NCBI GenBank assembly: GCA_964627205.1
Contig: CAZVHI010000005.1
Span: forward strand, 46,595-110,594
Reading direction: 5' to 3'
DNA length: 64,000 bases
Origin: an uncultured bacterium
Lineage (GTDB): Bacteria; Krumholzibacteriota; Krumholzibacteriia; JACNKJ01
Shown: positions 5,273-54,914 of the stretch, one piece after another
Position numbering within the stretch: position 1 is the first letter of the stretch
Layout: each line of letters starts with the position of its first letter
Made by a program: the position numbers and the translations under genes
The notes under the pieces: generated by a model
What the model was told of the DNA's origin: nothing
Database searches by the model: none
What the model saw: the letters and a program-made list of their open reading frames with translations, nothing else

Positions 5273-5635
5273 GTGGGTAGCAGAGCCGAGCCCGATATCG
5301 TCTTTCTCAGCTTGCTGCTGAATCTGCAGGGCGCCGCCCTGCAGCAGATGGGCAAGATGGCCAGCCCGCTCACCGGCGAGGTGGAACGGAATCTCGCGAT
5401 GGCGAAGCAGTCCATCGACCTGCTCGAATGCCTGGACAGAAAGACCAAGGGGAACCTGAGCGAAGACGAGGAGAAGACCTTCCAGGAGATCCTCACCCAC
5501 CTGCGGCTGAATTACGTCGCCGAGCTCCAGCAGGAGCAGCAAGAGGGCGGGGAAACGGGCGAGGGGGACGAGGACGCGGAGAAGGAGACGAGCTCCGGCG
5601 GCGATAGCGAGGACGCTGCCACCGCGGGGGACTGA
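5273..5635 (+). CDS. DUF1844-like small acidic protein.
   Basis: FLSLLLNLQGAALQQMG...NLAMAKQSIDLLECLDRKTKGNLSEDEEK matches the DUF1844 pattern. The C-terminus is acidic. GTG start after AGGAGG. Confidence 0.6.
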   Translation: MGSRAEPDIVFLSLLLNLQGAALQQMGKMASPLTGEVERNLAMAKQSIDLLECLDRKTKGNLSEDEEKTFQEILTHLRLNYVAELQQEQQEGGETGEGDEDAEKETSSGGDSEDAATAGD

Positions 5636-6988
5636 ATGCCCCGCCGATCCTCGCTTCGCTGGGTGGGCCTGGCCCTGGCCCTGTTCCTTTCCAGCCTGAT
5701 GCACGCGCTACCCGCCGGCGCCGGCTTCGGCGGTCCCGAGGCGGGCGGGCTGCTGCACGTCCGCAGCACGGACACCGTCGGCCTGGGCACGCTGCGCAGC
5801 ACCCTTTCCCACAGCTACTACTTCCAGGACGTCGGTGAGGACAGCCGCTATCACTTTTCCCTCGGCAGGCTGGGCCTGGCCTTCGGCCTGGGGGACGTCG
5901 GCCACGTCAGCTTCGACAGCCGCGTCCTCGGTGCCATGCGCTTCGCCTCCGTCCAGGATCCGATCCTGTATGACGCGATCGGTGACTCCGACTGGACAGC
6001 AGGCCTCGGCGACAGCGAACTGGGGCTCAAGCTCGTCCTGCCCATGCCCGTGTCGCGTCTGCGTCTCGCCGCCGAGGTTGACCTGCTTCTGCCGACGGGG
6101 GACACGGAGAAGCACTTCAGCGGGGAGAGTCGCGACTACGAGCTGGTCGGCGTGATCAGCATCGACCTGCTGCGAGGCACCAACTTTGTCCCGACGCGCC
6201 TCCACCTGAACGCCGGGCTGCGCGTCAACCGCAATCCCGAGGGGCAGGGCCTGCCGCCCGCGCTCGACCCGTCCGAGTGGAGCAGTCCCTTCCCGCCCTA
6301 CTATCCAGCTCTCGAGGCGGAGGAGTTGATCGACACCCGGCGACAGAGCCTCTACGGCGCGGGGCTCGAGTTCATCGGCACTCGCACACGGCTCTACGGC
6401 GAGTTGACGGTGGAGACGCTCTATCATCTCACCGACCGCTACGCCACGCGGGAGAATCTCTGGCAGCTCGGCCTGGGCTTCCGGACGCGCGGGCCCTGGC
6501 GCCTCGAGCTCTTCGGCGCCTTCGACATCAACCTCTCCCACGACGACTTCGACACCGAGTTCGAGCCGCACTACCCGCGTCTCGTGACGACGGTCGGACT
6601 GAACCGGAGCTGGCAGGTTCTCGCGGGGGATCCGGACCGGGACGGAGTGCGCGGCGACGCCGATCTGTGCCCGGACCGGCCGGAGGACTTCGACGGTTTC
6701 GAGGACGAGGACGGCTGTCCCGATCCCGACAACGACCGCGACGGCGTGCCCGACCTGATCGACCTCGCGCCCAGCCTGCCGGAGGACTTCGACGGCTTCG
6801 AGGACGCGGACGGCCGGCCCGACCTGGACAACGACAACGACGGTATCGCCGACCGGGACGACCTCTGCCCCGACCGTCCGGAGGACTTCGACGGCATCGA
6901 AGACGAGGACGGCTGCCCCGACCGCAACGGCGGAACTGGCGAAGGCGATGCCGAGCCGCGTGGCGACGACTTGCGAGAGCAGGGCTGA
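5636..6988 (+). CDS. Secreted protein: signal peptide, N-terminal predicted beta-barrel-like domain, and C-terminal thrombospondin type-3 (TSP3) calcium-binding repeats. No OmpA C-terminal domain.
   Basis: Signal peptide MPRRSSLRWVGLALALFLSSLMHALPAGAG. Three repeats of CPDRPEDFDG[FI]EDEDGCPDxDNDxDG (DxDxDGxxD motifs). The start is adjacent to the DUF1844 stop (TGAATG). Confidence 0.7.
   Translation: MPRRSSLRWVGLALALFLSSLMHALPAGAGFGGPEAGGLLHVRSTDTVGLGTLRSTLSHSYYFQDVGEDSRYHFSLGRLGLAFGLGDVGHVSFDSRVLGAMRFASVQDPILYDAIGDSDWTAGLGDSELGLKLVLPMPVSRLRLAAEVDLLLPTGDTEKHFSGESRDYELVGVISIDLLRGTNFVPTRLHLNAGLRVNRNPEGQGLPPALDPSEWSSPFPPYYPALEAEELIDTRRQSLYGAGLEFIGTRTRLYGELTVETLYHLTDRYATRENLWQLGLGFRTRGPWRLELFGAFDINLSHDDFDTEFEPHYPRLVTTVGLNRSWQVLAGDPDRDGVRGDADLCPDRPEDFDGFEDEDGCPDPDNDRDGVPDLIDLAPSLPEDFDGFEDADGRPDLDNDNDGIADRDDLCPDRPEDFDGIEDEDGCPDRNGGTGEGDAEPRGDDLREQG
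6660..6925 (+). repeat. Three tandem ~90-99 bp direct repeats encoding the TSP3-like units.
   Basis: The unit ccggaggacttcgacggNttcgaggacgNggacggc recurs near 6680, 6779 and 6869. Confidence 0.7.
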
Positions 6989-11834: not shown

Positions 11835-11909
11835 GCGAAGGTAGCTCAGTCGGTAGAGCAGCGGGCTGAAAACTCGCGTGTCGGCGGTTCAATTCCGTCC
11901 CTTCGCACC
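11835..11909 (+). tRNA. tRNA-Phe (anticodon GAA).
   Basis: Hand-folded cloverleaf. Acceptor GCGAAGG/CCTTCGC, D-arm GCTC..GAGC, anticodon loop CTGAAAA, T-arm GGCGG TTCAATT CCGTC, discriminator A. Confidence 0.85.
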
Positions 11910-14884: not shown

Positions 14885-14957
<73 letters not shown>

Positions 14958-14998
14958 CCCGCCGAGTCCTCCCCTCGCGGGGAGGCTCCCGCTCCTCC

Positions 14999-16499: not shown

Positions 16500-18326
16500 A
16501 TGTGCGGAATCATTGGCTATCTGGGCGACCGCCCCGCCCTTCCCATCCTCCTTGCGGGACTGAAGCGCCTGGAGTACCGCGGCTACGACTCCTCGGGAGT
16601 CGCTCTCCACGAAGAGGGCGGACTCACGGTGGTCAAGCGGGAGGGGAAGATCCTCAACCTGGAGCAGGCTCTCCAGGAGCAGCGGCACGCAGCCACCACG
16701 GGCATCGCGCACACCCGCTGGGCGACGCACGGCGCCCCGACGCGGGTCAACGCGCACCCGCACGTGGACGGCCCCGGCGACCTCGCTCTCGTCCACAACG
16801 GGATCATCGAGAACTTCCACCTCCTGCGCCGCTACCTCACCGAGCAAGGCATCGAGTTCCAGACGGAGACCGACACCGAGGTGCTCGCACAGCTGATCTC
16901 CCACTACTACGACGGGAGTCTCGAGGAGGCGGTGAGGCGGGCGCTTTCCATCGTCGAGGGCACCTACGGCATCGCCGTCATCCACAAGGACCACCCGCGC
17001 AGGATGGTCGGCGCCCGCAACGGCAGCCCGATGGTGATGGGCATCGGCGACGGCGAGCACTTCCTCGCAAGCGATGTCGCAGCCATCCTCGCCCACACGC
17101 GCCAGGTGATCTACCTGGACGACCAGGAGATGGTCGTCGTGCAGGACGGCGAGTTCCACACGAAGACCGTCACCAACGAGAGCGTGGAGAAGGTCATCCA
17201 CCAGGTCGACTGGGATCTCGAGAGCATCGAGAAGGGCGGCTACTCCCACTTCATGCTGAAGGAGATCTTCGAGCAGCCGACCACGATCCGCGACTCATTC
17301 CGCGGTCGCCTCCTGGAAGAGGACGGAAACGCCCGTCTCGGCGGCCTGATCACCAATCTCGACTCGCTACGGCGCGTGGACCGCGTCATCTTCCTGGCCT
17401 GCGGGACCAGCTGGCATGCCGCTCTGATCGGCGAGTACATGGTCGAGAAGCTGGCGCGCATCCCCGTGGAAGTGGAGTACGCCTCCGAGTTCCGCTACCG
17501 CAACCCGATCCTGACCGAGAACAACGTCGCGTGGTCGATCAGCCAGTCCGGGGAGACGGTCGACACACTGGCCGCCATGCGCGAGGCGAAGACGAAGGGC
17601 GCGCTCGCGTTGGGTATATGCAACGTGGTGGGCAGCACCATCGCACGCGAGAGCGACGGGGGGGTCTACATCCACGCGGGCCCGGAGATCGGCGTGGCCA
17701 GCACCAAGGCCTTCACCAGCCAGGTGACGGTGCTCGCCATCATCACCTTGCTCCTCGGCCGCATGCGCTACATCTCGAAGGACCTCGGCCAGGAGCTCGT
17801 GCGGGAACTGCAGGCGATCCCGGACAAGGTGGAGCGCATCCTCGAGATGGACGGGCAGATCGCGGAGATCGCGCAGGCCTACGCGGAAGCCAACAACTTC
17901 CTCTACCTCGGGCGGGGGATCAACTTCCCGGTCGCCCTGGAGGGCGCGCTCAAGCTCAAGGAGATCTCCTACGTGCACGCCGAGGGCTATCCCGCGGCGG
18001 AGATGAAGCACGGTCCCATCGCGCTGATCGACGAGAACATGCCCGTGGTTTTCGTGAGCCCGCGCGGGGGCAGCAACGAGAAGATCCTCGGGAACATGGA
18101 GGAGGTGAAGGCCAGGGGCGGCCGCATCATCGCGGTGGTCAACGAGGGTGACACGAACGCCTCCGCCCTCGCCGACCACATCATCCCCATCCCCGAGACC
18201 GTGGAGTACCTGTCGCCTCTGCTCACGGTGATTCCCCTGCAGCTCCTCGCCTACCACATCGCCATCCTGCGCGGATGCAACGTGGATCAACCCCGCAACC
18301 TCGCCAAGAGCGTGACGGTGGAGTAG
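16500..18326 (+). CDS. glmS: Glutamine--fructose-6-phosphate aminotransferase (isomerizing).
   Basis: N-terminal MCGIIGY glutamine amidotransferase class II, two SIS domains, 608 aa. Confidence 0.95.
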   Translation: MCGIIGYLGDRPALPILLAGLKRLEYRGYDSSGVALHEEGGLTVVKREGKILNLEQALQEQRHAATTGIAHTRWATHGAPTRVNAHPHVDGPGDLALVHNGIIENFHLLRRYLTEQGIEFQTETDTEVLAQLISHYYDGSLEEAVRRALSIVEGTYGIAVIHKDHPRRMVGARNGSPMVMGIGDGEHFLASDVAAILAHTRQVIYLDDQEMVVVQDGEFHTKTVTNESVEKVIHQVDWDLESIEKGGYSHFMLKEIFEQPTTIRDSFRGRLLEEDGNARLGGLITNLDSLRRVDRVIFLACGTSWHAALIGEYMVEKLARIPVEVEYASEFRYRNPILTENNVAWSISQSGETVDTLAAMREAKTKGALALGICNVVGSTIARESDGGVYIHAGPEIGVASTKAFTSQVTVLAIITLLLGRMRYISKDLGQELVRELQAIPDKVERILEMDGQIAEIAQAYAEANNFLYLGRGINFPVALEGALKLKEISYVHAEGYPAAEMKHGPIALIDENMPVVFVSPRGGSNEKILGNMEEVKARGGRIIAVVNEGDTNASALADHIIPIPETVEYLSPLLTVIPLQLLAYHIAILRGCNVDQPRNLAKSVTVE

Positions 18327-18329
18327 ACC

Positions 18330-18725
18330 ATGAAACGCGAGATCGTGAGCTGCCCGGACGCGCCGAAGGCCATCGGGCCTTATAGCCAGGCCGTGCGCAT
18401 GTGCAGCCTGCTGTTCACCGCCGGGCAGGTGCCGCTCGATCCCCGCAGCATGAAACTGGTGGAGGGTGGCATCGCCGAACAGACCCATCAGGTCATGCGC
18501 AACCTGGCGGCTGTCCTGGCCGAGGTCGGCGCCGGCTTCGGGGACGTGCTGAAGAGCACGATCTACGTGACCGATCTCGGCCACTTCGCCGCGCTGAACG
18601 AGGTCTACGGCGAGTACTTCCGGGACATCGACCCTCCCGCGCGCTCGACCGTTCAGGTCGCCGCGTTACCGATGGGCGCCCTGGTCGAGATCGACATGAT
18701 TGTGCGGATCCCCGCCGGTGATTAG
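18330..18725 (+). CDS. ridA: RidA/YjgF family reactive-intermediate deaminase.
   Basis: APKAIGPYSQAV...TIYVTDLGHFAALNEVYGEYF...ARSTVQVAALPMGALVEI. Confidence 0.85.
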   Translation: MKREIVSCPDAPKAIGPYSQAVRMCSLLFTAGQVPLDPRSMKLVEGGIAEQTHQVMRNLAAVLAEVGAGFGDVLKSTIYVTDLGHFAALNEVYGEYFRDIDPPARSTVQVAALPMGALVEIDMIVRIPAGD

Positions 18726-18806: not shown

Positions 18807-19229
18807 ATGGCGAGGTCGGGATTCGCACTTGGACTCTGTATCCTGGCGGCCGTCGCGAGCGGCCCCGGCTGCAAGTCTGGAACTTCGCCGACGGCGACGG
18901 ACGAGATCAGCCAGGCGATCCGGGCGCTCATGACAGAATGGGAGCTAGGCTTCGAGACGCAGGACGTCGAGCGGGTCGAAGCAGTGTTCGACGCGCGCTA
19001 CTGGCCCGGCGAGTTCCTGAGCGCATCGCGCTTCGACGACTTGAAGGGCCACCCGTTCCGGCTGCTCGACGTCGAGATCCAGCCGCAGGTGCAGGAGGAA
19101 TACGCGGACGCGGACTTCCGCGTCTACGTGGAGGACGCGCCCGGTCTCTCCATCCGCGTCCTCTGGACGCTGCGGGCGAGCCTCGACGAATGGCTGGTCA
19201 TCGAGGAACACTGGGGCAGTTACGAGTAA
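18807..19229 (+). CDS. Hypothetical lipoprotein/secreted protein (NTF2/SnoaL-like fold plausible).
   Basis: Signal peptide MARSGFALGLCILAAVASGPGC. The track ORF starts 20 codons upstream at 18747. Confidence 0.5.
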   Translation: MARSGFALGLCILAAVASGPGCKSGTSPTATDEISQAIRALMTEWELGFETQDVERVEAVFDARYWPGEFLSASRFDDLKGHPFRLLDVEIQPQVQEEYADADFRVYVEDAPGLSIRVLWTLRASLDEWLVIEEHWGSYE

Positions 19230-19296: not shown

Positions 19297-19394
19297 GGGA
19301 GTGGATGGGTCCTGGTGGGCCCCGAGGACTTCAAATCCTTATGCCGGGTGCTAAACCCATCCGGGGTGGGTTCGATTCCCACACATTCCCGCCA
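19297..19394 (+). tRNA. selC: tRNA-Sec (selC; anticodon UCA), 98 nt with a long variable arm, encoded CCA.
   Basis: GGGAGTGGATGGGTCCTGGTGGGCC CCGAGGACTTCAAATCCTT ATGCCGGGTGCTAAACCCATCCGG GGTGGGTTCGATTCCCACACATTCCCGCCA. The anticodon stem-loop GGACTTCAAATCC is identical to E. coli selC, and the extended acceptor and long extra arm are typical of tRNA-Sec. Confidence 0.8.
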
Positions 19395-19426: not shown

Positions 19427-19969
19427 ATGAAAGCACTCCTCCCGCTGCTCTGCCTCCTCCTCGCGGCGACGAGCGTCGCGTCCGAGGCGGAGCCGCATGC
19501 CGTCCCGGCGGCCGAGGAGGAGGCCCTGGTCGAGGCTCCCACGAAGAACGCGCGGCTGGCCATCGCCGCCTCCGCACTCTTCCCGGGCCTGGGGCAGCTC
19601 TACAACGAGGAGGGGCTCAAGACGCTGGCCGTCTTCGTCTGGGAGAGCTACTACATCGCGACGATCCTGCGCGAGGCGCAGGAGGCCGACCTCTATCGCC
19701 GTCGCGCGGCAACCCTGGGCGAGGGCGAGACATGGAACGGCCTCGACCACTCCGAGCTGCGAAGCCGCTTCCACGCGCACGAGGACAGGCAGCGAGATTA
19801 CATCTGGTACGGCTCCGCCCTCTTCCTCGCCAGCATCCTCGACGCCTATGTCTTCGCTCACCTCTACAGCTTCGAGACCGACGGCGTCCGTACCCGCAGC
19901 GCCGGCATCCTTCCCGTCCTCGATCCGAGCGAACGCGCGGTAGGGCTGCAGCTCCGCCTACGCTTCTAG
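19427..19969 (+). CDS. Hypothetical secreted protein (DUF5683-like).
   Basis: Signal peptide MKALLPLLCLLLAATSVAS. The motif ALFPGLGQLYNEEGLKT resembles DUF5683. Confidence 0.45.
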   Translation: MKALLPLLCLLLAATSVASEAEPHAVPAAEEEALVEAPTKNARLAIAASALFPGLGQLYNEEGLKTLAVFVWESYYIATILREAQEADLYRRRAATLGEGETWNGLDHSELRSRFHAHEDRQRDYIWYGSALFLASILDAYVFAHLYSFETDGVRTRSAGILPVLDPSERAVGLQLRLRF

Positions 19970-19978
19970 AACGATTCC

Positions 19979-21781
19979 ATGATCCCCACGAGCCACATCC
20001 GCAACTTCTGCATCATCGCCCACATTGACCACGGGAAATCCACCCTGGCCGATCGTCTGCTGGAGCTCACAGGCACGATCTCGTCCCGCCAGATGCAGGC
20101 GCAGGTTCTGGACGACATGGAGCTCGAGCGCGAGCGGGGAATCACGATCAAGAGCCACCCCATCGCCATGCGCTACGAGGATGCAGGAGGAGAGGAGTAT
20201 CGGTACAACCTGATCGACACGCCGGGGCACGTGGACTTCAGTTACGAGGTGAGCCGCAGTCTCGCGGCCTGCGAGGGGGCGATCCTGGTCGTGGACGCGG
20301 CGCAGGGCGTGGAAGCCCAGACGCTCGCCAACCTCTACCTCGCGCTCGAGAACGACCTCGCGCTTCTGCCAGTGATCAACAAGATCGACCTCCCCAGTGC
20401 ACGCACCGAAGAGGTGAGAGAAGAACTGGTGCAGATCCTGGGGGTGGAACCGGATGAGATCCTGGCGCTCAGCGCCAAGAGCGGCGAGGGCGTGCCGGCG
20501 CTCCTGGACGCCATTGCCGAGCGTCTGCCGAGCCCCGTGGATCGCACCCTGGAGCCCTTCCGCGCGCTGATCTTCGATTCGAGCTACGACTCCTACCTGG
20601 GGGCAGTAGCGACCGTGCGCGTCATGGAGGGGACAGCAAAGAAGGGCGACCGCGTACGCTTCCTCGCCGCCGGGAAGGCATACGAGGTGCAGGAGCTGGG
20701 CTGCTGGGTGATGGGGCGCCAGCCCACCCCCGAGCTTCGGGCGGGCGAGGTCGGCTATCTCATCACGGGCGCGAAGCAGATCCGCGACGTGCGCGTGGGG
20801 GACACCCTGGCGGCCGATCTCGACCCGGCGCCGAAGCCGCTGCCGGGCTACCGTCCCGTCAAGCCCATGGTCTACAGCGGGCTCTACCCCGCCCAGAGCG
20901 AGGACTACGAGGAGCTGCGCGAGGCGATGGAGAAGCTGCAGCTCAACGACGCGGCCATTTCCTACGAGCCGGAGAGCAGCAGCGCCCTGGGCTTCGGCTT
21001 CCGCTGCGGCTTCCTGGGTCTTCTGCACTTGGAGATCGTACAGGAGCGCCTCGAGCGGGAGTTCGACCTCACCCTCATCGCCACGCTCCCCAACGTGGAG
21101 TATCGCGCCATCCTGAAGGACGGCGAGGAGGTCTCGGTATCCAATCCGGCCCAGATGCCCGATCCCGCCGCCCTGGCGGAGATCCGGGAACCGGTCGTGA
21201 GAGGCACGATATACACGCCCTCCGATTATGTGGGCGCCGTGATGAAACTCTGCATGGAGCGGCGCGGAGTCCAGGAGGGCATGAGCTACCTGGACAGCCA
21301 GCGGGTCGAGCTGCATTTCCGGCTTCCGCTGGCTGAAGTCGTAGTGGACTTCTACGATCGTCTGAAGAACAATAGCCGAGGACACGCGAGCTTCGATTAC
21401 GAATACGCCGGCCACGAGCTCAGCGACATGGTCAAGCTCGGCATCCTGGTGAACGGCGACCCGGTGGACGCGCTGTCCAGCATCGTCCACCGCGACAAGG
21501 CCCAGTTCTGGGGCAAGTTGCTCGTGGAGAAGCTGAAGGAGGAGATCCCCCGGCAGCTCTTCCAGGTGGCCCTTCAGGCGGCGGTGGGCGCGAAGATCGT
21601 CGCCCGCAGCAACATCAGCGCCCTGCGCAAGAACGTCACCGCGAAGTGCTACGGCGGCGACATCACCAGGAAACGGAAGCTGCTCGAGAGGCAGCGCGAG
21701 GGGAAGCGGCGGATGAAGCAGGTCGGCAACGTCGAGATTCCGCAGGAGGCCTTCCTGGCTATCCTGAAGGTCGAACGATAG
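19979..21781 (+). CDS. lepA: Elongation factor 4 (LepA).
   Basis: IRNFCIIAHIDHGKSTLADRLL, G-domain motifs, 600 aa. Confidence 0.95.
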   Translation: MIPTSHIRNFCIIAHIDHGKSTLADRLLELTGTISSRQMQAQVLDDMELERERGITIKSHPIAMRYEDAGGEEYRYNLIDTPGHVDFSYEVSRSLAACEGAILVVDAAQGVEAQTLANLYLALENDLALLPVINKIDLPSARTEEVREELVQILGVEPDEILALSAKSGEGVPALLDAIAERLPSPVDRTLEPFRALIFDSSYDSYLGAVATVRVMEGTAKKGDRVRFLAAGKAYEVQELGCWVMGRQPTPELRAGEVGYLITGAKQIRDVRVGDTLAADLDPAPKPLPGYRPVKPMVYSGLYPAQSEDYEELREAMEKLQLNDAAISYEPESSSALGFGFRCGFLGLLHLEIVQERLEREFDLTLIATLPNVEYRAILKDGEEVSVSNPAQMPDPAALAEIREPVVRGTIYTPSDYVGAVMKLCMERRGVQEGMSYLDSQRVELHFRLPLAEVVVDFYDRLKNNSRGHASFDYEYAGHELSDMVKLGILVNGDPVDALSSIVHRDKAQFWGKLLVEKLKEEIPRQLFQVALQAAVGAKIVARSNISALRKNVTAKCYGGDITRKRKLLERQREGKRRMKQVGNVEIPQEAFLAILKVER

Positions 21782-34044: not shown

Positions 34045-35172
34045 CTAGGAGCCGTCGAAGCCGATCTTCGGGTCATAGCGGCGCTCGTCCTCATGGCAAT
34101 CGGCGCAGTCCGGCGGCGTGCCGAATCCCTGTACATGGCAGTCGGAGCAGTCGGCCTCGCGGTGCTCTTCGTCGAGCTCCACGCCTGTGGACGCGTGGCT
34201 GAACTCGGTCGGCTGCCAGTCACCCGGGTGACAGAACTGGCAGCGCGGTTCGAGCTTCATGAAGGCTCCTCGCTGGCCATGGCAGCTGCGGCAGCTGAGC
34301 CCGGCATGATAGCTCGCCAGGGGCCAGCCGGTGACGTCGTGGCTGAATAGGTCGTTCGGGTCGCGGCCGTGGCAGGTATCGCAGTACTCGTCTTCCTCCC
34401 TGTGGCATCGGAAACAGGTGTCGTGCAAGTCGGTCTCGGTGGGAGCGCCCATCGGGTGCAGCTCCTCGCCCTGCACGTGGCAGCGCTTGCAGCTCTGCTG
34501 CTGATGGCACTCGACGCAGTCCCGCTCGTAGAGCTCCGAGTGGTTCCTGTGGTGGAATGGAACCTTGTCCCCCTCCTCGTACTCGGTCCGGAAGACGATC
34601 AGCTCGATCAGCTCGATCTTCTCGTAGTGGGAGTGTTCGCAGACCTCTGACGGTATTCCCGGCACCGCCTTCTCGTGGCAGATCTCGCAGGCGGTGTCGT
34701 TGTCCCACTCCTCGTGGCAGGCGAGACAGTTCCGGTGGTAGGCGCCCTTGAGCCCCGGCTGGGCGATGTCCTCGTGGACGATCTCCGTGGGGTGGCAGCT
34801 CTTGCATTCGGGGTGCGGGTCGTTCGGGGGCGTGAAGTGGTGGCAGGTCTCGCAACCCCCGTTCAGCTGGACCATCTCGGCATGCCGCAGGTGGTTGAAA
34901 CGCACGGGGACGTAGAGCTTCTCCAGCTCGTCCATGATCACGATGCTGGGCCCCATCTCCGCTTCCAGGGCGTCCATGACCTCGTGGCGCGGGCAGATCT
35001 GCGACTTCAGGCAGGGGTTCACCGGCGACGGCCGCTCGCAGTGGTGGCACTCGTTGCAGTCGGGGGTCCTGCGAGTCGCCTCCGCTGCGACGGGTTGCAA
35101 TGCCGTGCAGAGGATCGTGACCACGAACAGTAGAAGGCCAAGCGATCTCTCGACTTCACTTCGCTTCTTCAC
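34045..35172 (-). CDS. Periplasmic multiheme c-type cytochrome with 13 CxxCH motifs.
   Basis: Signal peptide, then CNECH, CETCH, CKSCH, CLACH, CEICH, CVECH, CKRCH, CFRCH, CDTCH, CRSCH, CQFCH, CSDCH, CADCH. GTG start at 35172. Confidence 0.85.
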   Translation of the reverse strand: MKKRSEVERSLGLLLFVVTILCTALQPVAAEATRRTPDCNECHHCERPSPVNPCLKSQICPRHEVMDALEAEMGPSIVIMDELEKLYVPVRFNHLRHAEMVQLNGGCETCHHFTPPNDPHPECKSCHPTEIVHEDIAQPGLKGAYHRNCLACHEEWDNDTACEICHEKAVPGIPSEVCEHSHYEKIELIELIVFRTEYEEGDKVPFHHRNHSELYERDCVECHQQQSCKRCHVQGEELHPMGAPTETDLHDTCFRCHREEDEYCDTCHGRDPNDLFSHDVTGWPLASYHAGLSCRSCHGQRGAFMKLEPRCQFCHPGDWQPTEFSHASTGVELDEEHREADCSDCHVQGFGTPPDCADCHEDERRYDPKIGFDGS

Positions 35173-35321
35173 CGTTGTCCTCTCTTACTGCTCTTCCCCT
35201 TCTTCGCCGGAGTGGCCACCAGCGCTCTGATGAAGACGATGAAGAGCAGGAGATAGCCGATGACCAGCAGGTACTCGATGCCCTTGGTTGCGAAGATGTC
35301 CACGTACTCGAAACTTTCCAT
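35169..35321 (-). CDS. Unannotated 50-aa single-TM protein (putative small subunit of the redox complex).
   Basis: MESFEYVDIFATKGIEYLLVIGYLLLFIVFIRALVATPAKKGKSSKRGQR. Its TGA overlaps the cytochrome GTG start (GTGA), and its ATG lies 1 nt after the NrfD-like gene stop. Not in the ORF track (too short). Confidence 0.5.
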   Translation of the reverse strand: MESFEYVDIFATKGIEYLLVIGYLLLFIVFIRALVATPAKKGKSSKRGQR

Positions 35322-35322
35322 C

Positions 35323-36573
35323 TCATCCCCCCTTGCCTGTCGCCTCGTCCGCCGTCGCCCAGGCGGGCGGATCCCCGAGCACCGGCATCCGGTTCACGAC
35401 CCAGCGGAACACCCAGATCTCGGCGCAGATCACACCCAGTGTAACCTCGATCTCCATCCAGGTCGGCACGTAGCGCACGGCCGCGTCCCACTGGAAGGCG
35501 ATGACCGAGATGTTGAGCCGGTTGAGGATGATGCCGACCATCGCCAGGACCGCGGCGACGCGGATCGTGCCCACGCTACGGCTGCGCACCGCCCGGAAGA
35601 AGAGGACGCCGGGCAGGAGGACGAAGCCGATCACCTCGAGCAGGTACCAGGCTCCCCAGGCCGTTCCCAGCTGTTGCCAGTGCTGGCCGTGCACCAGGAT
35701 GAGCAGCTTCATGAAGAGGTAGACGAAGATCGCGCCGGCGCAGATCCGGCCCAGGCCGACGAGGATGTCGTCCTGGGACGCGTGCGCCCCGCGGCCGAGC
35801 CGGTGGCTGAACACCCTGTGGCTGATCGAGCCCTCGAAGATCACCATCGAGAGCCCGGCGAAGATGCTGGAGACGAAGAAGAGCACGGGGATGAACTCCG
35901 TGTACCACAGGGGATGGATCTTGCTCTTCGCCGTCAGGAAGAGCGCGCCGAGGCCCGACTGGTGCAGCGTGGAGAGCGTGATCCCGAAAATCACCGCGCC
36001 GATCGTCAGCACGGCGAAGATCCGCCGCACGCGCCGCCAGCCGAGCCACTCGGCCACGGCGGGGAAGAACTCGATCAGCTCGGCGAGCATGTAGAGCAGG
36101 AAGTGCCAGGCCACGAGGAAGAGCACCGAACTGACGCCGAAGGAGTTACCGATGATCGGATTGACGACGTTCCAGGGTCTGCCCAGGTCGAGCAATAGCG
36201 CGCCCGCGTAGAACACGTAGGCGAGGAAGCCGTTCAGGACCGTCGCCCGTACGATGGGGTGATACTGCTTGGCGCCGAGGATGTAGACGAGGAAGGTGAG
36301 CACGTAGGCACCGCCGGCGAAGGCGACGCCGGTGACCACGTCGAAGCCGATCCAGATGCCCCAGGGATAGTCCTGGGACAGGTTGGTGATCGCCCCGAGC
36401 CCCTTGGCGAAGCGGATCACAAGCAGGAACACAGCCAGCAGGATGATCGGAATCGAGATCAGGTTGAAGGGCGTCAGCAGGCTGCCCTTGGGCTTCAGCT
36501 CGCGCGCGAGGAAGCCGGCGAGCTCCCGAGGCCGGACGGCTTCTTGCGTCGGCGAACCCAAGGGCCGGCTCAT
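35323..36573 (-). CDS. NrfD/PsrC/HybB-family integral membrane quinone-interacting subunit.
   Basis: 416 aa with about 8-10 TM helices. NrfD-like topology. The start overlaps the FeS gene stop. Confidence 0.8.
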   Translation of the reverse strand: MSRPLGSPTQEAVRPRELAGFLARELKPKGSLLTPFNLISIPIILLAVFLLVIRFAKGLGAITNLSQDYPWGIWIGFDVVTGVAFAGGAYVLTFLVYILGAKQYHPIVRATVLNGFLAYVFYAGALLLDLGRPWNVVNPIIGNSFGVSSVLFLVAWHFLLYMLAELIEFFPAVAEWLGWRRVRRIFAVLTIGAVIFGITLSTLHQSGLGALFLTAKSKIHPLWYTEFIPVLFFVSSIFAGLSMVIFEGSISHRVFSHRLGRGAHASQDDILVGLGRICAGAIFVYLFMKLLILVHGQHWQQLGTAWGAWYLLEVIGFVLLPGVLFFRAVRSRSVGTIRVAAVLAMVGIILNRLNISVIAFQWDAAVRYVPTWMEIEVTLGVICAEIWVFRWVVNRMPVLGDPPAWATADEATGKGG

Positions 36574-37439
36574 GGCGCCTCCTCGCCCAAGGTCTCGCGC
36601 TCAGCGCGTCGCGTCCGACTCGCCCCGTAGAGGAAGGCCGGCCAGAGAAGCAGGATGATGGGCACGGAGTAGAGGAAATCCTGCGTGTGCTCCGGGATCG
36701 GTGTCGTCCCGAGATCGGTCCGGAAGCCGATCTGCTTGAAGGGGACCGCCGAGAGGTAGAGCCACGAGGTTCCACCCACCTCGCACTCGCCGTAGATGTC
36801 GTGAACGTACTTCTCCGGGTTGCCGTAGATCCTGCTCCGCGCGATCTCGACGAGCTCCCGGCGCGTGCCGAAGGCGAGCGCCTCGACGGGGCAGCCCTCG
36901 ACGCACGCGGGAATCTGCCCCTGCTGCAAGCGCTCCGCACAGAAGACGCACTTCTGGATCTTGGGGTTGGCGCTGTGGTACTCGAACTTGGGCACGTCGA
37001 AGGGGCAGGAGATCATGCAGTAGCGGCAGCCCATGCACTTGTCTCCGCGCCAGATGACCGGGCCCCGCCGCGTCTTGTGCATCGCCTGGACCAGGCAGGC
37101 CGACGCGCAACCGGGCTGGTTGCAGTGCATGCACTGCCGCTTGACGAAGAACTCACCCTTTTCCGTCTCGAAGCGGTTGACCACGGTCCACTGGGACGGG
37201 CTCGTCCGCCGTGGCTGAGCGAAGACGCTCTTGTCCTTGATGTCGGGCACGGGGAGGGCGTGGGTTTCCGCGCAGGCCTCCTCGCACTTGCGGCAGCCGT
37301 TGCAGCGCACGGTGTCGACGAGCACGGACAGGAACTCCGTGTCGTCTCCTCGCGCGGGAGCCCGGCCGGAGGCGCGTCCCGGCAGGAGACCCGTCCCCGC
37401 TGCGCCGCCCACCAGTTTGAGGAACTGCCTTCTCTCCAT
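36570..37439 (-). CDS. Tat-exported 4x[4Fe-4S] ferredoxin-type subunit (HybA/NrfC/PsrB/HmcB-like) with a C-terminal TM anchor.
   Basis: Twin-arginine signal MERRQFLKLVGGAAGTG. Four Cys clusters (CNGCRKCEEAC...CP, CMHCNQPGCASAC, CMGCRYCMISCP, CVFCAERL...CVEGCP). C-terminal hydrophobic helix. Confidence 0.85.
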   Translation of the reverse strand: MERRQFLKLVGGAAGTGLLPGRASGRAPARGDDTEFLSVLVDTVRCNGCRKCEEACAETHALPVPDIKDKSVFAQPRRTSPSQWTVVNRFETEKGEFFVKRQCMHCNQPGCASACLVQAMHKTRRGPVIWRGDKCMGCRYCMISCPFDVPKFEYHSANPKIQKCVFCAERLQQGQIPACVEGCPVEALAFGTRRELVEIARSRIYGNPEKYVHDIYGECEVGGTSWLYLSAVPFKQIGFRTDLGTTPIPEHTQDFLYSVPIILLLWPAFLYGASRTRRAERETLGEEAP

Positions 37440-37650: not shown

Positions 37651-37724
37651 GGGCCCATAGCTCAGTTGGTCAGAGCGGGCGACTCATAATCGTTCGGTCG
37701 CAGGTTCGAGTCCTGCTGGGCCCA
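37651..37724 (+). tRNA. tRNA-Met (anticodon CAT; elongator Met or lysidine-modified Ile2).
   Basis: Acceptor GGGCCCA/TGGGCCC, anticodon loop CTCATAA, T-arm GCAGG TTCGAGT CCTGC. Confidence 0.8.
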
Positions 37725-37765
37725 CCGCCGCGCTCGCACGGAGATCCCAACCCGTCCGGAAGGCC

Positions 37766-39136: not shown

Positions 39137-39486
39137 GGAAGCGGACCGGACGGCCGCGGGCCCTCGGGTCCGAGGAAAGTCCGGGCTCCACAGGGCAGGG
39201 TGCTGGGTAACTCCCAGGGGAAGCGATTCCACGGAAAGTGCCACAGAAAATATACCGCCGGCTCCGGCCGGTAAGGGTGAAAAGGCGAGGTAAGAGCTCA
39301 CCGGGCGCCCGGTGACGGGCGTCGCACGGCAAACCCCACCCGGAGCAAGACCAAGCAGGGAAGACGAGGTGGCCCGCCTCGACCATTCCCGGGTAGGTTG
39401 CTCGAGGCGGCCGGTAACGGTCGCCCTAGATAAATGGCCGTCGCTCCCCGCGGGGAGGACAGAACCCGGCTTACAGGTCCGCTTCC
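39137..39486 (+). ncRNA. rnpB: RNase P RNA (rnpB, bacterial type A).
   Basis: P1 GGAAGCGGACC...GGTCCGCTTCC. P4 halves GAGGAAAGTCCGGGCTCC and ACAGAACCCGGCTTA. GGTAAGGGTGAAAAGGCGAGGTAAGAGCTCACC. A T-run follows. Several track ORFs here are artefacts. Confidence 0.85.
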
Positions 39487-39526
39487 TTTTCTTTTCCGCA
39501 GCGCAACCCCTGCCCACGGAGGACGC

Positions 39527-45742: not shown

Positions 45743-46164
45743 TGAATCACTTCAACAGAACGAGATGGGTGTGGTCATGGAGAGTGAAAGCAGAGCGAAT
45801 AAAGCGATCAGCAGGCGCAGACCGAGGAGCGGCTGCGGGCGGGGCTTGGGCATGATCTGTCCTCAAACATTTGAGCAGCATGGAATCCCGACACTGGATC
45901 GGAACGATCGTAGCGGTAACGACGAAACCGAGGTTTCCTTTCCGACATTCTCGTTACTCATATGACTCACGATCTCGCGCAATGATACCACACTGCTGCG
46001 CTTTCCCCATTGGATAGCCAGCTCGATCTTCGCCCGTGTTCGCCAACAGGGTCAATTGCGCTCCGCTCCGTGGGTGGCGTTGACTCCCGCCGGGGCCTGT
46101 GATAGTTTTCCGCCTCAGCGTCAAACCGTTGGAAAACCTGGACCTTCCGCGGAACAAGGAAGTC

Positions 46165-49029
46165 ATGCCGCCCACCGCGCTCCGCGCCGTCCCCTGGACG
46201 GGCCGCCTCCTGTGTCTGATGATCTGCTGCGGTCTCCTCGCATGCGCCGCCGTGCAGGCCGCGGCGCAGAGCTCGGGCGGAACCCTCACGGGCGTGATGA
46301 TCGACAAGGCCACGGGCGACCCGCTGGCCTATGGCAACGTCGTCCTGCTCGGTACCGACTATGGCGGCATGAGCCTGGACGACGGCACCTTCCTCGTCAC
46401 CAACATCCCCCCCGGCACCTACACGATCCGCGCCAGCTACATGGGCTACAAGATGGCCGAGAAGGCGCTGGTGCGCCTGCGCAACGGCACCGTCCTCGAG
46501 CTGGAGTTCGAGCTGGAGCCCACGGTGATCGAGTCGGAGACGATCACCGTCTATGGCGAGAAGCCCCTGGTGGACGTCACCGAGGCTTCGAGCATCAAAA
46601 GCCTGGCCGCGAGCGACATCGCCATGATGCCCGTGGAGACGGTGGAGGAGGTTGTGATCGCGCAGCCGGGCGTCGTGCAGCAGGACGACGAGATCCACAT
46701 CCGCGGCGGCCGCTCCGACGAGACCCTCGTGCTCGTCGACGGCGTGCCGATGAAGGACGCCCTGGCCGGCACGAGCAGCGCCAAGGGTATCGACTCGAAG
46801 TCCGTCGCCCAGATGGACCTGATCACCGGCGGCTGGCGTGCCGAGTTCGGCAACGCCATGGCGGGCGTCATCAACGTGACCCTCAAGGAAGGCGGCGAGA
46901 CCTTTAGCGGCTTCACCGAGTACGGCATCGACCACTTGCCCTTCGTCGGCACGGACTGGGAGCACTACTACACCGACACCTACAAATTCCAGTTCGGCGG
47001 GCCGATGCCCGGCAGCGGCACCTGGTTCCCCGGCGAGCGGCTGAGCTTCTTCAGCAACTTCTCCGGTCAGATCATGAATACGCGCTTCCCGAGCATCCGC
47101 AACATGCCGGGGGGCGAGGACCACGTGCAGATCCGCTACGAGGATAGCTTCCTGGGCATCCCCATCATCTGGAAGAGCCCCGACATCGCCCCGCGGCAGA
47201 ACAACAACTGGAACGTCATGGCGAAGGTGGCCTGGAAGCTGAACAAGGACCACAAGTTCACCCTGACCCTGACCAAGTACCTCGCCTTCGACCAGGGCTT
47301 CGACCGCCACGACATCAGCGACCTCACGCGGCAGAGCAACCGCTACCCCTACCGGTGGTCGCACTATCTCAACCACTACAGCGCCTTCCTCGAGGACCGC
47401 AACACGGCCGTGCTCAAGTACCGGCAGAACGTGTCGGGCAGCATGTTCCACGAGCTGCAGATCTCGCGCTTCTTCGTACGCATCCGGCAGGACTCGCAGA
47501 AAGAGGCCGTCGATGAGCTGCGTGACTACATCGCGCAGTACGCGCCCAGCGCACTCGACTGGCCCGACGCCGCCCAGGGCGAGTTCTGGGACTTCCATCC
47601 CTACTTCTATTTGAACGGGGACTACAACCAGTACCGGGACCGCTACACGGAGCGCTACGCGTTCAAGTGGGACATCACCAAGAAGTGGTACCCGCACCAC
47701 AAGGGGAAAGCCGGCTTCACGCTCGGCTACGAGAGCATCCAGAACATCGAGATCCGCGATCCCTGGATCCAGCGTGAAGACGGGCTTGGCCGCAAGGACA
47801 TCTTCCGTTCCTTTCCGACCACCGGGCACATCTACCTGCAGGACGACATCGAATACCAGGGCTTCGTTTCGAACGTCGGCCTGCGCACCGACATCTGGTT
47901 CCCGGGACAGTTGGCCGAAGGTGCCGCCCAGGCCGCCATCGACGGCACGGCCGGCGACCTCTTCACCGCCGAAGTGGGCCATGAGTACTTCCGAAGCACC
48001 AACAGCCTCTTCGGCAACCGCTACAAGTACACGATCAGCCCTCGCGTGGCGATCAGCTACCCGGTCACCGACAGGGACAACCTGTTCTTCAACTACGGGC
48101 ACTTCAGCCAGTGGCCCACCTACTACTACGTCTACACGCACGTGGCCAGCGGCGTGGAGGACCTCTTCGGCAACCTGGGCAACATCAATCTCGATCCCCA
48201 GATCACGATCCAGTACGAGCTGGGCGCGCGGCACAGCTTCAGCTACAACGTGGCCGGCGACCTGACGGTGTTCGTCCGCGACATCTTCAACTACCCGACG
48301 AGCGAGCGCTACACGGTGCAGTACTACGACCCGGTGGAGGGGAGCAAGGAGGCGACCTACTTCCTCTACCGCAACAGCGACTACTCGCGCAGCCGCGGCA
48401 TCGAGCTTTCTATACGCAAGCGGCGCGGGCGCTACTTCTCCGGGTCGGTCAACTACACCTTCTCCATCGCCACGGGCAAGAGCAGCGACCCGAACGCCCA
48501 GCGCGAGCTCTATGTCGGCGGCGCGACGGGCGAGGTCGAGCTGCAGGAGGGCTTCCTGTGGTGGAACCGGCCCCACCGCCTCACCGCCACCTGCGACTTC
48601 CGCGTACGCGACATCCGGGGCCCGGAGATCCTCGGCGTCCGGCTGCCCGGGCACTGGGGCTTCAACGCCTACTACAGCCTCTCCAGTGGCCGCGCCTACA
48701 CGCCGGAGGACACCACGGGCCAGCCCATCGGCGAGGACTACTCCCGCAACGGCCCCATCGAGCAGAACCTCAACATGAAGCTGCAGAAGTGGATCATCTG
48801 GGGCGACTACCGTATCGACCTCACCCTGCAGGGCTGGAACATCTTCAACTGGAGCCAGCCCCGGCACATCGACCCCATCACGGGTGATCACTACAAGGAG
48901 GGCTACGGCAGCTACGCAGCCCAGCTCACCGATCCCGACTCCCGGCTCTCGCGCTACCTCAGCCTCGCCGACCCCTCGCGCAACGGCAGCCCGCGCCGCT
49001 TCAAGCTCAGCCTGGGGGTGAACTTCTGA
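46165..49029 (+). CDS. TonB-dependent outer-membrane receptor, SusC/RagA-like (N-terminal CarbopepD_reg domain + plug + 22-strand barrel).
   Basis: Signal peptide, carboxypeptidase-regulatory-like domain (LTGVMIDKATGDPLAYGNVVLLGT...YTIRASYMGY), plug motif IHIRGGRSDETLVLVDGVP, and a C-terminal aromatic (F). The track ORF starts at 46099; ATG at 46165 follows RBS AAGGAAG. Confidence 0.85.
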   Translation: MPPTALRAVPWTGRLLCLMICCGLLACAAVQAAAQSSGGTLTGVMIDKATGDPLAYGNVVLLGTDYGGMSLDDGTFLVTNIPPGTYTIRASYMGYKMAEKALVRLRNGTVLELEFELEPTVIESETITVYGEKPLVDVTEASSIKSLAASDIAMMPVETVEEVVIAQPGVVQQDDEIHIRGGRSDETLVLVDGVPMKDALAGTSSAKGIDSKSVAQMDLITGGWRAEFGNAMAGVINVTLKEGGETFSGFTEYGIDHLPFVGTDWEHYYTDTYKFQFGGPMPGSGTWFPGERLSFFSNFSGQIMNTRFPSIRNMPGGEDHVQIRYEDSFLGIPIIWKSPDIAPRQNNNWNVMAKVAWKLNKDHKFTLTLTKYLAFDQGFDRHDISDLTRQSNRYPYRWSHYLNHYSAFLEDRNTAVLKYRQNVSGSMFHELQISRFFVRIRQDSQKEAVDELRDYIAQYAPSALDWPDAAQGEFWDFHPYFYLNGDYNQYRDRYTERYAFKWDITKKWYPHHKGKAGFTLGYESIQNIEIRDPWIQREDGLGRKDIFRSFPTTGHIYLQDDIEYQGFVSNVGLRTDIWFPGQLAEGAAQAAIDGTAGDLFTAEVGHEYFRSTNSLFGNRYKYTISPRVAISYPVTDRDNLFFNYGHFSQWPTYYYVYTHVASGVEDLFGNLGNINLDPQITIQYELGARHSFSYNVAGDLTVFVRDIFNYPTSERYTVQYYDPVEGSKEATYFLYRNSDYSRSRGIELSIRKRRGRYFSGSVNYTFSIATGKSSDPNAQRELYVGGATGEVELQEGFLWWNRPHRLTATCDFRVRDIRGPEILGVRLPGHWGFNAYYSLSSGRAYTPEDTTGQPIGEDYSRNGPIEQNLNMKLQKWIIWGDYRIDLTLQGWNIFNWSQPRHIDPITGDHYKEGYGSYAAQLTDPDSRLSRYLSLADPSRNGSPRRFKLSLGVNF

Positions 49030-50027
49030 TGCCGCCCCTACGCCGCATCCTCCCGCTCCTCGCCCTGCTCCTCCTGCTGGCCGGGCCCCTGCGCGCCGCC
49101 CAGGAGCTGGGCGCGCTGCGTGTGGCGACCAGCAGCGGTACATTCTTGAAAATCGGCATCGGCCCGCGGGCGGCGGCCATGGGCGGCGCCTGGTCGGCGA
49201 TCGCCGCCGACGCCACGGCCGCCTGGTACAATCCCGCCGGCCTGGGGCAGCTGCCCAACCGCCAGCTCTTCGCGGGCTACATCGCCTGGCCGGCGGGCAT
49301 CCACTATGGCAACTTCATCGTGGCCATGCCGATGGCGAGCCTGCGGGGCAACGTCGCCCTTCAGTTCGGCAACCTGTCGACGACACTCGACGAGACCGAC
49401 GAGTACCACCCCTACGGCACGGGGCGTCGCTTCGTCTATTCGGACTGGGTGCTGGGCGCGTCCTACGCGCGCTCGATGACCGACCAGCTCCTCTTGGGCC
49501 TGACCGTCAAGTACGTGCGCGAGGACCTCGGCTCGACGGTGGGGGGTCCCGTGATCAGCACCTGGGTGGTGGACGCGGGCACGCTCTACAGTATGGGCTT
49601 CCGAAACCTGCGCATCGGCATGAGCATCCAGAACTTCGGCCCCGACTTCAAGCCCGTGGGGAGCTACTGGAACCACGTCGAGGAGAAGGAGGAGGACTAC
49701 GAGGGCTTCCCGCCGCCGTCCGCCTTCAAGCTGGGGGTGGCCTTCGAGCCGTGGAAGAGCTACCCCTGGATCCTCACCCAGACCCTCGAGATGAACCATC
49801 TCGCCGACAACCAGGAGACGCTCGCCACGGGCCTCGAGCTGTCCTACATGGGCGGGCTCTTCGCCTTGCGCAGCGGCTACAACTTCATGGCCGACGAGAT
49901 GGGACTCGCGGCCGGCTTCGGCGCGACTTTCATGATGGGCTCGGCGCTGGCCGGGCTGGACTACTCCTACACGGACGGCAACTCGCTGGGGGGCATCCAT
50001 CGCTGGGCCCTCCGGCTGGACTTCTAG
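49029..50027 (+). CDS. FadL/PorV-like outer-membrane beta-barrel protein (possible T9SS-associated shuttle/PorP-PorV family).
   Basis: Signal peptide, then AAMGGAWSAIAADATAAWYNPAGLG (FadL/PorV-type N-terminal motif). C-terminal ...WALRLDF (aromatic terminus). Confidence 0.5.
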   Translation: MPPLRRILPLLALLLLLAGPLRAAQELGALRVATSSGTFLKIGIGPRAAAMGGAWSAIAADATAAWYNPAGLGQLPNRQLFAGYIAWPAGIHYGNFIVAMPMASLRGNVALQFGNLSTTLDETDEYHPYGTGRRFVYSDWVLGASYARSMTDQLLLGLTVKYVREDLGSTVGGPVISTWVVDAGTLYSMGFRNLRIGMSIQNFGPDFKPVGSYWNHVEEKEEDYEGFPPPSAFKLGVAFEPWKSYPWILTQTLEMNHLADNQETLATGLELSYMGGLFALRSGYNFMADEMGLAAGFGATFMMGSALAGLDYSYTDGNSLGGIHRWALRLDF

Positions 50028-50034
50028 GGGGGAG

Positions 50035-50973
50035 ATGCGCCGCGCGGTATGGCATCTACTGCTCTTCACCCTGCTGGCGGCGGCCTGCGGCGTGAAGCCC
50101 GAGCTGCCGAGCCAGATTCCCAGCACGGAGGTGCTGGGCGACGAGAGCTACACGCTGCCCTACTACTGGGTGATCGGCGGCGTGACGGACATGCTCGTGC
50201 ACCGCGGCACGCGCATCTTCTCGATCATCCAGGACGCCGACAGCGTGAGCATCTATCCCACCTACGCGCGCGGCGACACGCTGCCGAGCCACAAGCGCCT
50301 GTTCACGGGGCTCACTGCTCCGCGCCTGCTGGCCGACGGTAGCGACCACAAGTTCCGCCTCTGGGTCTACGACGACGGCGATGCCACGCTGAAGGGCTTC
50401 GACGGCGGCGAGTTCCTCGACACGCTGACGGTGGAGATCGCCCACAGCGATCCCGCCTGGCAGGACGTGGTGGCGGTCGCCGCGGACAACGAGGCGCGCG
50501 TCTTCGTGGCGGACCGGGCCGCCAACAAGATCTATCGCTACCGCGTGAGCGATCCGCCCGCGCCCGAGCTGGAGGCCGACGGCGAGATCCAGTGGGTATC
50601 TCAGCAGGCGGGGGCCACGGTGCGCGACCTGGCCTATTCCGCGGGCTGGCTCGTCCTGCTGGACGACGGGCTCGGCACGATCCAGCTTCTCGATCCGGCG
50701 AGCGAGCTCGATCCGGTCTTCGAGTACATGGACGGCGTGCTCGCCCAGCCGGAGGCCGTCACCGCGAACGAGGCGCACATCTTCGTGATGGACCGGGCCG
50801 ACACCACGATCTGGGAGATCGGTTGGGATCTCGAACCGGACGGCGCCCGCCGCGTGAACGAAGGCGCGAACCAGGTGCTGCGGAATCCCACGGCCTTCAC
50901 GGTGAACGAGAGCAAGGTCTACGTGGCTGACATCGAGCAGGGAAGGGTCTTCGACTATGAGAAGCGCCAGTAG
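50035..50973 (+). CDS. Lipoprotein with NHL/beta-propeller-like repeats.
   Basis: Lipobox LLAAAC. Repeated RVFVADRAANKIYRY, HIFVMDRADTTIWEI and KVYVADIEQGRVFDY blades. Confidence 0.55.
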   Translation: MRRAVWHLLLFTLLAAACGVKPELPSQIPSTEVLGDESYTLPYYWVIGGVTDMLVHRGTRIFSIIQDADSVSIYPTYARGDTLPSHKRLFTGLTAPRLLADGSDHKFRLWVYDDGDATLKGFDGGEFLDTLTVEIAHSDPAWQDVVAVAADNEARVFVADRAANKIYRYRVSDPPAPELEADGEIQWVSQQAGATVRDLAYSAGWLVLLDDGLGTIQLLDPASELDPVFEYMDGVLAQPEAVTANEAHIFVMDRADTTIWEIGWDLEPDGARRVNEGANQVLRNPTAFTVNESKVYVADIEQGRVFDYEKRQ

Positions 50974-53254: not shown

Positions 53255-53283
53255 GCGCGCCCGGGAGGAAAGGGATTCGCAAC

Positions 53284-54840: not shown

Positions 54841-54914
54841 ATGAACGTGCCCGCGGGACCGCCCAGGGCCCACGGCATCAATCGGTCTTAATAGTTAGCC
54901 TTCAGGGGGCAGTG

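Follow-up and report, generated by a model that had tools for sequence, protein, structure and literature searches.

Genomic setting of the tRNA-Sec gene

The window analysed here, a whole stretch of 64,000 nucleotides (64 kb) with a GC content of ~68% and an even composition showing no break, carries a gene for tRNA-Sec with the anticodon UCA (selC) in a block of the order glmM-glmS-ridA-140-aa ORF-selC-DUF5683-lepA-lepB-radical SAM gene. Downstream of this block follow hrcA-grpE-dnaJ, mutS2, dnaG and rpoD, and RNase P RNA, recJ, relA/spoT, dtd and an rpsI-rpsB-tsf-pyrH-frr-uppS block lie farther off in the window. Genes were picked by codon-position GC and ~60 ORFs were annotated with Pfam; the features closest to selC and the other RNA genes are given below.

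11835-11909: tRNA-Phe(GAA)
14885-14959: tRNA-Thr(CGT)
16500-18326, plus strand: glmS (Pfam), in the conserved upstream synteny block 16500-18725
18330-18725, plus strand: ridA (Pfam); the same order recurs in relatives
18807-19229, plus strand: 140-aa ORF of no family, read from its translation; no Pfam match, gene-called in the metagenome copies
19297-19394, plus strand: selC (tRNA-Sec), 98 nt, CCA encoded (ARAGORN, Rfam RF01852, fold, covariation)
19427-19969, plus strand: DUF5683 gene (PF18935, E 2.4e-12), in the conserved downstream block 19427-21781
19979-21781, plus strand: lepA (Pfam); synteny kept in relatives
37651-37726: tRNA-Met(CAT)
39138-39489: RNase P RNA, bacterial class A (Rfam RF00010, 315.9 bits)

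Since the recJ ORF as called begins at 39434, overlapping the 3′ end of the RNase P RNA, its true start must lie further downstream. Both neighbours of selC had been named in the first-pass annotation as a lipoprotein gene and a DUF5683-like gene. The DUF5683 assignment held; a lipoprotein is plausible but unproven for the 140-aa ORF, which belongs to no family and whose N-terminus resembles a signal peptide with a Cys at its end (MARSGFALGLCILAAVASGPGC). This ORF fills the slot that is held by selD in relatives of the window, and tblastn returned no homologue of it in 120 related loci; it appears to be a species-specific gene unrelated to selD. At the same place in the related locus L220, a C-terminal stretch is weakly similar to the 140-aa ORF.

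The source of the window is an uncultured marine bacterium, best assigned to Candidatus Krumholzibacteriota, though only as a probable member. Exact matches to its proteins occur in several marine metagenome assemblies (JGI, ENA, Logan) and on an NCBI contig, and the tRNA-Sec was identical in six independent metagenome copies. The closest named LepA homologues carry the labels Candidatus Krumholzibacteriota and Krumholzibacteria, at 78% and 74% identity, and the LepA of another metagenome-assembled genome (MAG) reaches 80%; in the NCBI taxonomy Krumholzibacteriota is a phylum directly under Bacteria. Two MAG loci, L220 (GCA_016933175.1) and L221 (GCA_024231955.1), keep the gene order of the window from uvrA to mutS2/dnaG and carry the tRNA-Sec in the same gap between ridA and the DUF5683 gene. 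In a LepA search of genome contigs, most of the matches listed belonged to Bacteroidota and Bacillota, with identities of 57-61%, and the only true syntenic relative among them was L020, a more distant MAG with a GC content of 74% and a LepA identity of 61%. The order of the tRNA-Phe, tRNA-Thr and tRNA-Sec genes was kept in L020, L220 and L221.

The affinities of LepA, the DUF5683 gene and a protein with a T9SS-type sorting domain resemble the Bacteroidota/Chlorobiota neighbourhood. The sorting-domain protein, whose domain is C-terminal, is encoded within 46099-56789, a region that opens with a TonB-dependent receptor carrying a carboxypeptidase-regulatory domain and continues with several large ORFs of no family; the receptor and the sorting domain would fit a Bacteroidota-like cell envelope. 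Elsewhere in the window, a three-gene operon on the minus strand (34045-37439) codes for a Fer4_11 4Fe-4S dicluster protein, an NrfD-type membrane subunit and a multihaem cytochrome c3/c7 protein, with no molybdopterin catalytic subunit adjacent to it. It is probably a quinone-linked redox module.

Identity and structure of the tRNA

Of the four tRNA genes that ARAGORN detected in the window, one is a tRNA-SeC (anticodon tca) occupying exactly 19297-19394 of the plus strand. For 19297-19390 the Rfam tRNA-Sec model RF01852 scored 73.3 bits (E 4e-13; gathering score 47), and it outranked the model for tRNAs in general, which belongs to the same clan. The 98-nt tRNA with a UCA anticodon that had been proposed from the letters was thus confirmed, and a covariance score favouring a class II tRNA of the Ser/Leu type was not seen. 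The minimum free energy (MFE) fold was a class II cloverleaf of −44.3 kcal/mol that accounted for 58% of the ensemble, with the following parts.

19297-19304, plus strand: 5′ acceptor strand GGGAGTG and G8; pairs with CATTCCC at 19384-19390 (fold)
19307-19322, plus strand: D arm, 6-bp stem GGGTCC/GGGCCC and 4-nt loop TGGT (Rfam, fold)
19331-19333, plus strand: anticodon TCA, reading UGA, at position 35 of the tRNA (ARAGORN)
19344-19364, plus strand: long variable arm, 7-bp stem and 7-nt loop; class II, SerRS identity element (fold)
19366-19394, plus strand: T arm (GTGGG/CCCAC, loop TTCGATT), 3′ acceptor strand, discriminator and CCA (fold)

In this fold the acceptor stem consists of seven Watson-Crick pairs, after which G8 stands opposite an A and a 2-nt linker follows. 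The anticodon stem has 5 bp, its loop reads CTTCAAA (19329-19335), and the discriminator G73 at 19391 directly precedes the encoded CCA. The long variable arm noted in the first reading of the sequence was borne out by the fold. A scan for σ70 promoter and intrinsic terminator consensus sequences at selC, blind to promoters of non-σ70 types, returned none, an outcome that carries no information for this lineage.

Comparison with selC of E. coli K-12 (b3658; L001) revealed the same architecture in spite of ~58% identical columns in the two-sequence alignment and of a length of 98 nt in the window versus 95 nt in E. coli. Both tRNAs have the UCA anticodon, the 8/2/6/4 layout, a long variable arm, a 5-bp T stem, G73 and an encoded CCA. 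The core of the anticodon stem-loop, GGACTTCAAATCC, had been claimed to be identical to that of E. coli selC, and no difference was found between the two in the L001 alignment. An extended arrangement of the acceptor and T stems, also claimed, stood as far as the layout was concerned (8+2+6+4+6, as in E. coli selC) and failed at the eighth acceptor pair, which is Watson-Crick in E. coli and G·A in the window. Because ARAGORN, the Rfam covariance model, the comparison with E. coli and the covariation described below all agree, the feature is a genuine and intact selC of the ordinary bacterial kind.

The eighth layer, formed by G8 (19304) facing an A (19383) in the fold, gives the acceptor branch an 8/5 layout of 12 Watson-Crick pairs and one G·A mismatch. 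We surveyed it in 81 distinct tRNA-Sec sequences sharing the 27-nt 3′ stretch of the window selC (GGTGGGTTCGATTCCCACACATTCCCG), which served as a lineage signature in an exact-match metagenome scan yielding more than 120 loci (the 81 sequences come from L095-L214). All 81 had the UCA anticodon; position 8 was G in 61, A in 13, C in 7 and never U, and the opposing A was invariant. Single-sequence MFE folds of these tRNAs were noisy, with many alternatives, and RNAalifold and pair counts were preferred. A 13-bp acceptor branch, made of an 8-bp acceptor stem and a 5-bp T stem, sets tRNA-Sec apart from canonical tRNAs and steers it to SelB instead of EF-Tu, with the antideterminants against EF-Tu residing in the last acceptor pair and the first two T-stem pairs (PMC6267555). 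Since natural tRNA-Sec with a 12-bp branch are also known (PMC6267555), the non-canonical eighth layer would fall within the known variation of tRNA-Sec. The G·A layer might itself act against EF-Tu or bear on the choice between SelB and EF-Tu.

Conservation of the tRNA among relatives

Across the window, L220 and L221, whose LepA proteins are 78-80% identical to that of the window, selC was ~95-97% conserved and the intergenic DNA on either side could not be aligned. In eight Krumholzibacteriota-like copies every variable stem position still paired, the acceptor pairs for this comparison being taken from an RNAalifold alignment of 33 relatives, and the other differences fell in loops and junctions. 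Among the close relatives, the sixth pair of the variable-arm stem had undergone a double change from U-A to C-G.

The same pattern was observed at larger distances. The selC genes of L020 and the window have identical acceptor and T arms, and the other three stems differ by paired changes. When the window, L020 and E. coli were compared, 96.6% of the cells were paired, versus 40-58% in slid controls, and 13 pairs had changed on both sides. RNAalifold on the 33 syntenic relatives reproduced the same cloverleaf with 10 compensatory pairs; 5 of the 6 D-stem pairs stayed paired through two-sided changes in at least one of the 33 clade members. This conservation is the pattern of a working gene and argues against a relic.

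Search for sel genes and selenoproteins near selC

Pfam scans of the ~60 ORFs revealed no domain of SelA, SelB or SelD. Six-frame tblastn searches at E ≤ 10 with E. coli SelA, SelB and SelD and four SelD sequences of the clade as queries were run against the window, ~10 kb past each end (L008 and L012) and the relative L020, and matched only the GTPase domain of LepA, a paralogue of SelB. No selA, selB or selD was thus found within ~83 kb, comprising the 64-kb window and ~19 kb of flanks, in agreement with the earlier claim that these genes are lacking near selC. Between ridA and selC, no decayed remnant of selD was detected at E ≤ 10. Six SelD candidates that were traced to their contigs all came from organisms other than that of the window.

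Selenoprotein genes were sought by two scans for in-frame TGA codons, one based on GC3 and the other on a codon model trained on the genes of the window, which in 20-codon windows gave a mean of +0.47 in frame and −0.76 off frame. The known Sec-TGA of selD in four relatives served as positive controls for the codon-model scan, and two of the four were recovered. At this sensitivity, no convincing gene with a Sec-TGA emerged in the window, its flanks and the two closest MAG loci, which agrees with the absence of an obvious selenoprotein gene from the window noted in the first reading. Out of 720 TGAs with open flanks scanned in the window, one passed, at 5633. This candidate (5633-5638) was rejected as a Sec codon: the TGA ends a DUF1844 gene and directly precedes the in-frame ATG of the next gene, which encodes a 450-aa protein with a signal peptide, so that an ordinary gene junction is the better reading.

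A selenocysteine-decoding trait comprises SelA, SelB, SelC and SelD together with at least one selenoprotein (PMC1794560). We infer that the partner genes and the selenoprotein genes must sit elsewhere in the genome. The same separation is familiar from E. coli K-12, in which selC, selAB and selD occupy three separate loci.

Pairing of selD and selC in the wider clade

The contigs retrieved with the exact 27-nt query, the 3′ end common to the window and L020, were sorted by tblastn. About 45 high-GC loci had the glmS-ridA-selC-DUF5683-lepA order of the window, and in at least 7 of these ~45 the same site also contained selD, immediately upstream of the tRNA gene. The order was selC-selD-selB-selA in a group of low-GC loci with the same tRNA 3′ end. 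Where E. coli SelD has its catalytic Cys17, every selD in both groups showed a stop codon in frame (…CSG*ASK…). In all eight selD genes checked, the codon at this position was TGA and a stable hairpin followed 11-16 nt downstream; the hairpin is SECIS-like, in the place and form expected of a bacterial SECIS element. In the eight SelD loci looked up, a tRNA-SeC lay 13-35 nt downstream of selD without exception.

A profile built from four SelDs of the clade retrieved matches of which the best 120 of 8000 were all 286-328 aa long and covered ~78-94% of the query, several of these 120 being labelled Candidatus Eisenbacteria by NCBI. The public SelD calls were N-terminally short by ~25-40 residues because the gene caller restarts after the Sec codon. 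The warning in the first-pass annotation that gene callers truncate such genes was therefore realised in these relatives, in which the SelDs linked to selC are recorded in shortened form, with lengths of 306-328 aa. Loci of the Eisenbacteria type with adjacent selD and selC included L114, L151, L193, L124, L113, L100, L204, L217-L219 and L222-L226.

In the Eisenbacteria-type loci (L151, L114, L219 and L223 as examples), the tRNA is an orthologue whose 27-nt 3′ end matches that of the window exactly, and the glmM-glmS-(ridA)...DUF5683-lepB/lepA neighbourhood is shared as well. The difference lies immediately upstream of selC, where a Sec-containing selD stands 13-35 nt away in these loci and the unrelated 140-aa ORF in the window; neither the window nor seven relatives of its subgroup have selD in this slot, which it occupies in their cousins. 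The low-GC clusters (L096, L161, L134 and L187) have the tRNA signature and UCA anticodon of the window and, as in the Eisenbacteria-type selD, a TGA at the Cys17 position, but they differ from the window in the full sel operon beside selC, a GC content of 30-35% and other flanking genes. Taken together, an ancestral module of selD(Sec) and selC in the glmS...lepA block was almost certainly common to the Eisenbacteria- and Krumholzibacteriota-type lineages. The tRNA family serves Sec decoding, since the selD beside selC in the cousins has TGA as its Cys17 codon, with a SECIS-like hairpin behind it.

One Eisenbacteria-type lineage carries a ThiI/tRNA-methyltransferase-like gene immediately after selD-selC (L223, 6123-7091; L224, 1375-2343). 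Its product might be an enzyme of tRNA thiolation or selenation tied to the selenium genes.

Function of selC and alternative explanations

We consider it very probable that the locus is a functional chromosomal selC encoding tRNA-Sec(UCA), standing alone in a housekeeping block with its partners elsewhere in the genome. Isolated selC genes among housekeeping genes are commonplace. That the organism uses selenocysteine follows with similarly high confidence from the purifying selection that acts on selC among its close relatives and from the pairing of selD(Sec) with selC in distant syntenic relatives. The organism would then still possess selA, selB and selD and at least one selenoprotein, and by analogy with its cousins this selenoprotein would most probably be a Sec-containing SelD. 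Among prokaryotic selenoproteins, SelD ranks second in how widely it occurs, and it is thought capable of maintaining the Sec trait when FdhA is rare, for example in marine metagenomes (PMC13188914, PMC1794560). If the tRNA behaves as in characterised bacteria, SerRS would charge it with serine by reading the long variable arm and G73, SelA, which recognises the D arm (6-bp stem, 4-nt loop) and the long acceptor branch, would turn the serine into selenocysteine with selenophosphate from SelD, and SelB would bring the tRNA to in-frame UGA codons with a SECIS hairpin downstream (PMC13188914, PMC6267555).

The main alternative is that selC is a relic in a Krumholzibacteriota subgroup that lost selD from the ancestral site and perhaps Sec decoding altogether. 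The lack of selD from its slot in the window and its seven subgroup relatives, in contrast to the cousins, points in this direction, as does the lack of a detected sel gene or selenoprotein in ~83 kb of the organism's DNA; moreover, bacteria frequently lose the Sec trait (PMC1794560). A relic is expected to decay, yet the tRNA forms a conserved island between flanks that cannot be aligned, all stem substitutions keep pairing, including the double change in the variable arm, and the gene remains complete, G73 and CCA included. Against the argument from distance, selC commonly stands apart from the other sel genes, as it does in E. coli, with neither selAB nor selD nearby. We therefore regard a relic as unlikely. 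Somewhat less probable still is a variant in which a Krumholzibacteriota subgroup without selA, selB and selD keeps a strongly selected tRNA(UCA) for a purpose independent of selenocysteine. If this were true, the conserved tRNA might serve, for example, a SelB-independent decoding of UGA, and such a role could be aided by the non-Watson-Crick eighth acceptor pair seen throughout the family. A different identity of the tRNA altogether, as a class II opal suppressor of the Ser/Leu type, an allo-tRNA or a Sec-like tRNA charged otherwise, could be argued from its seven Watson-Crick acceptor pairs with a mismatched eighth layer and from the fact that tRNAs with Sec-like features and a 12-bp acceptor branch occur in nature (PMC6267555). 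This identity is very improbable in view of the lead of RF01852 within the tRNA clan, of the D arm (6-bp stem, 4-nt loop), G73 and the extra 3′-strand nucleotide opposite position 8, all of which match E. coli selC, and of orthologues lying 13-35 nt from a selD that needs UGA to be read as Sec. Allo-tRNA traits, namely a 12-bp branch in 8/4 or 9/3 form, varied anticodons and a non-Sec identity, were not found in the tRNA of the window: its 5-bp T stem, UCA anticodon, G73, best match to RF01852 and orthologues beside a UGA-containing selD all speak against this class.

As a classic integration site of genomic islands, selC could also mark or belong to a mobile element, and in two loci of other lineages (L154, Ga0114999_10067501; L172, Ga0310124_10020507) only the 3′ half of the family tRNA, from the anticodon loop onward, was found joined to foreign sequence. 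These half-tRNAs look like att-site remnants of elements integrated at selC. In the window itself, a search with the last 26 nt of selC at up to 3 mismatches returned no second copy, no repeat family involving selC was detected, Pfam revealed no integrase or other mobile-element domain, composition showed no break, and gene order was kept for more than 20 kb on either side in two MAGs. The window selC, unlike that of E. coli, has no adjoining island or integrase, as the first reading had maintained, and a role as part or mark of a mobile element is hardly credible here.

Returning to the preferred reading of a functional selC with distant partners, we see no new mechanism in this gene, which is a routine member of a known system. 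Its value is rather that of a flag for annotation: an intact selC implies that UGA-encoded selenocysteine is to be expected in this uncultured lineage and that truncated or split genes should be checked. No paper linking Krumholzibacteriota or Eisenbacteria with selenocysteine was found in the literature searched, and bacteria of both types would now join the likely users of selenium.
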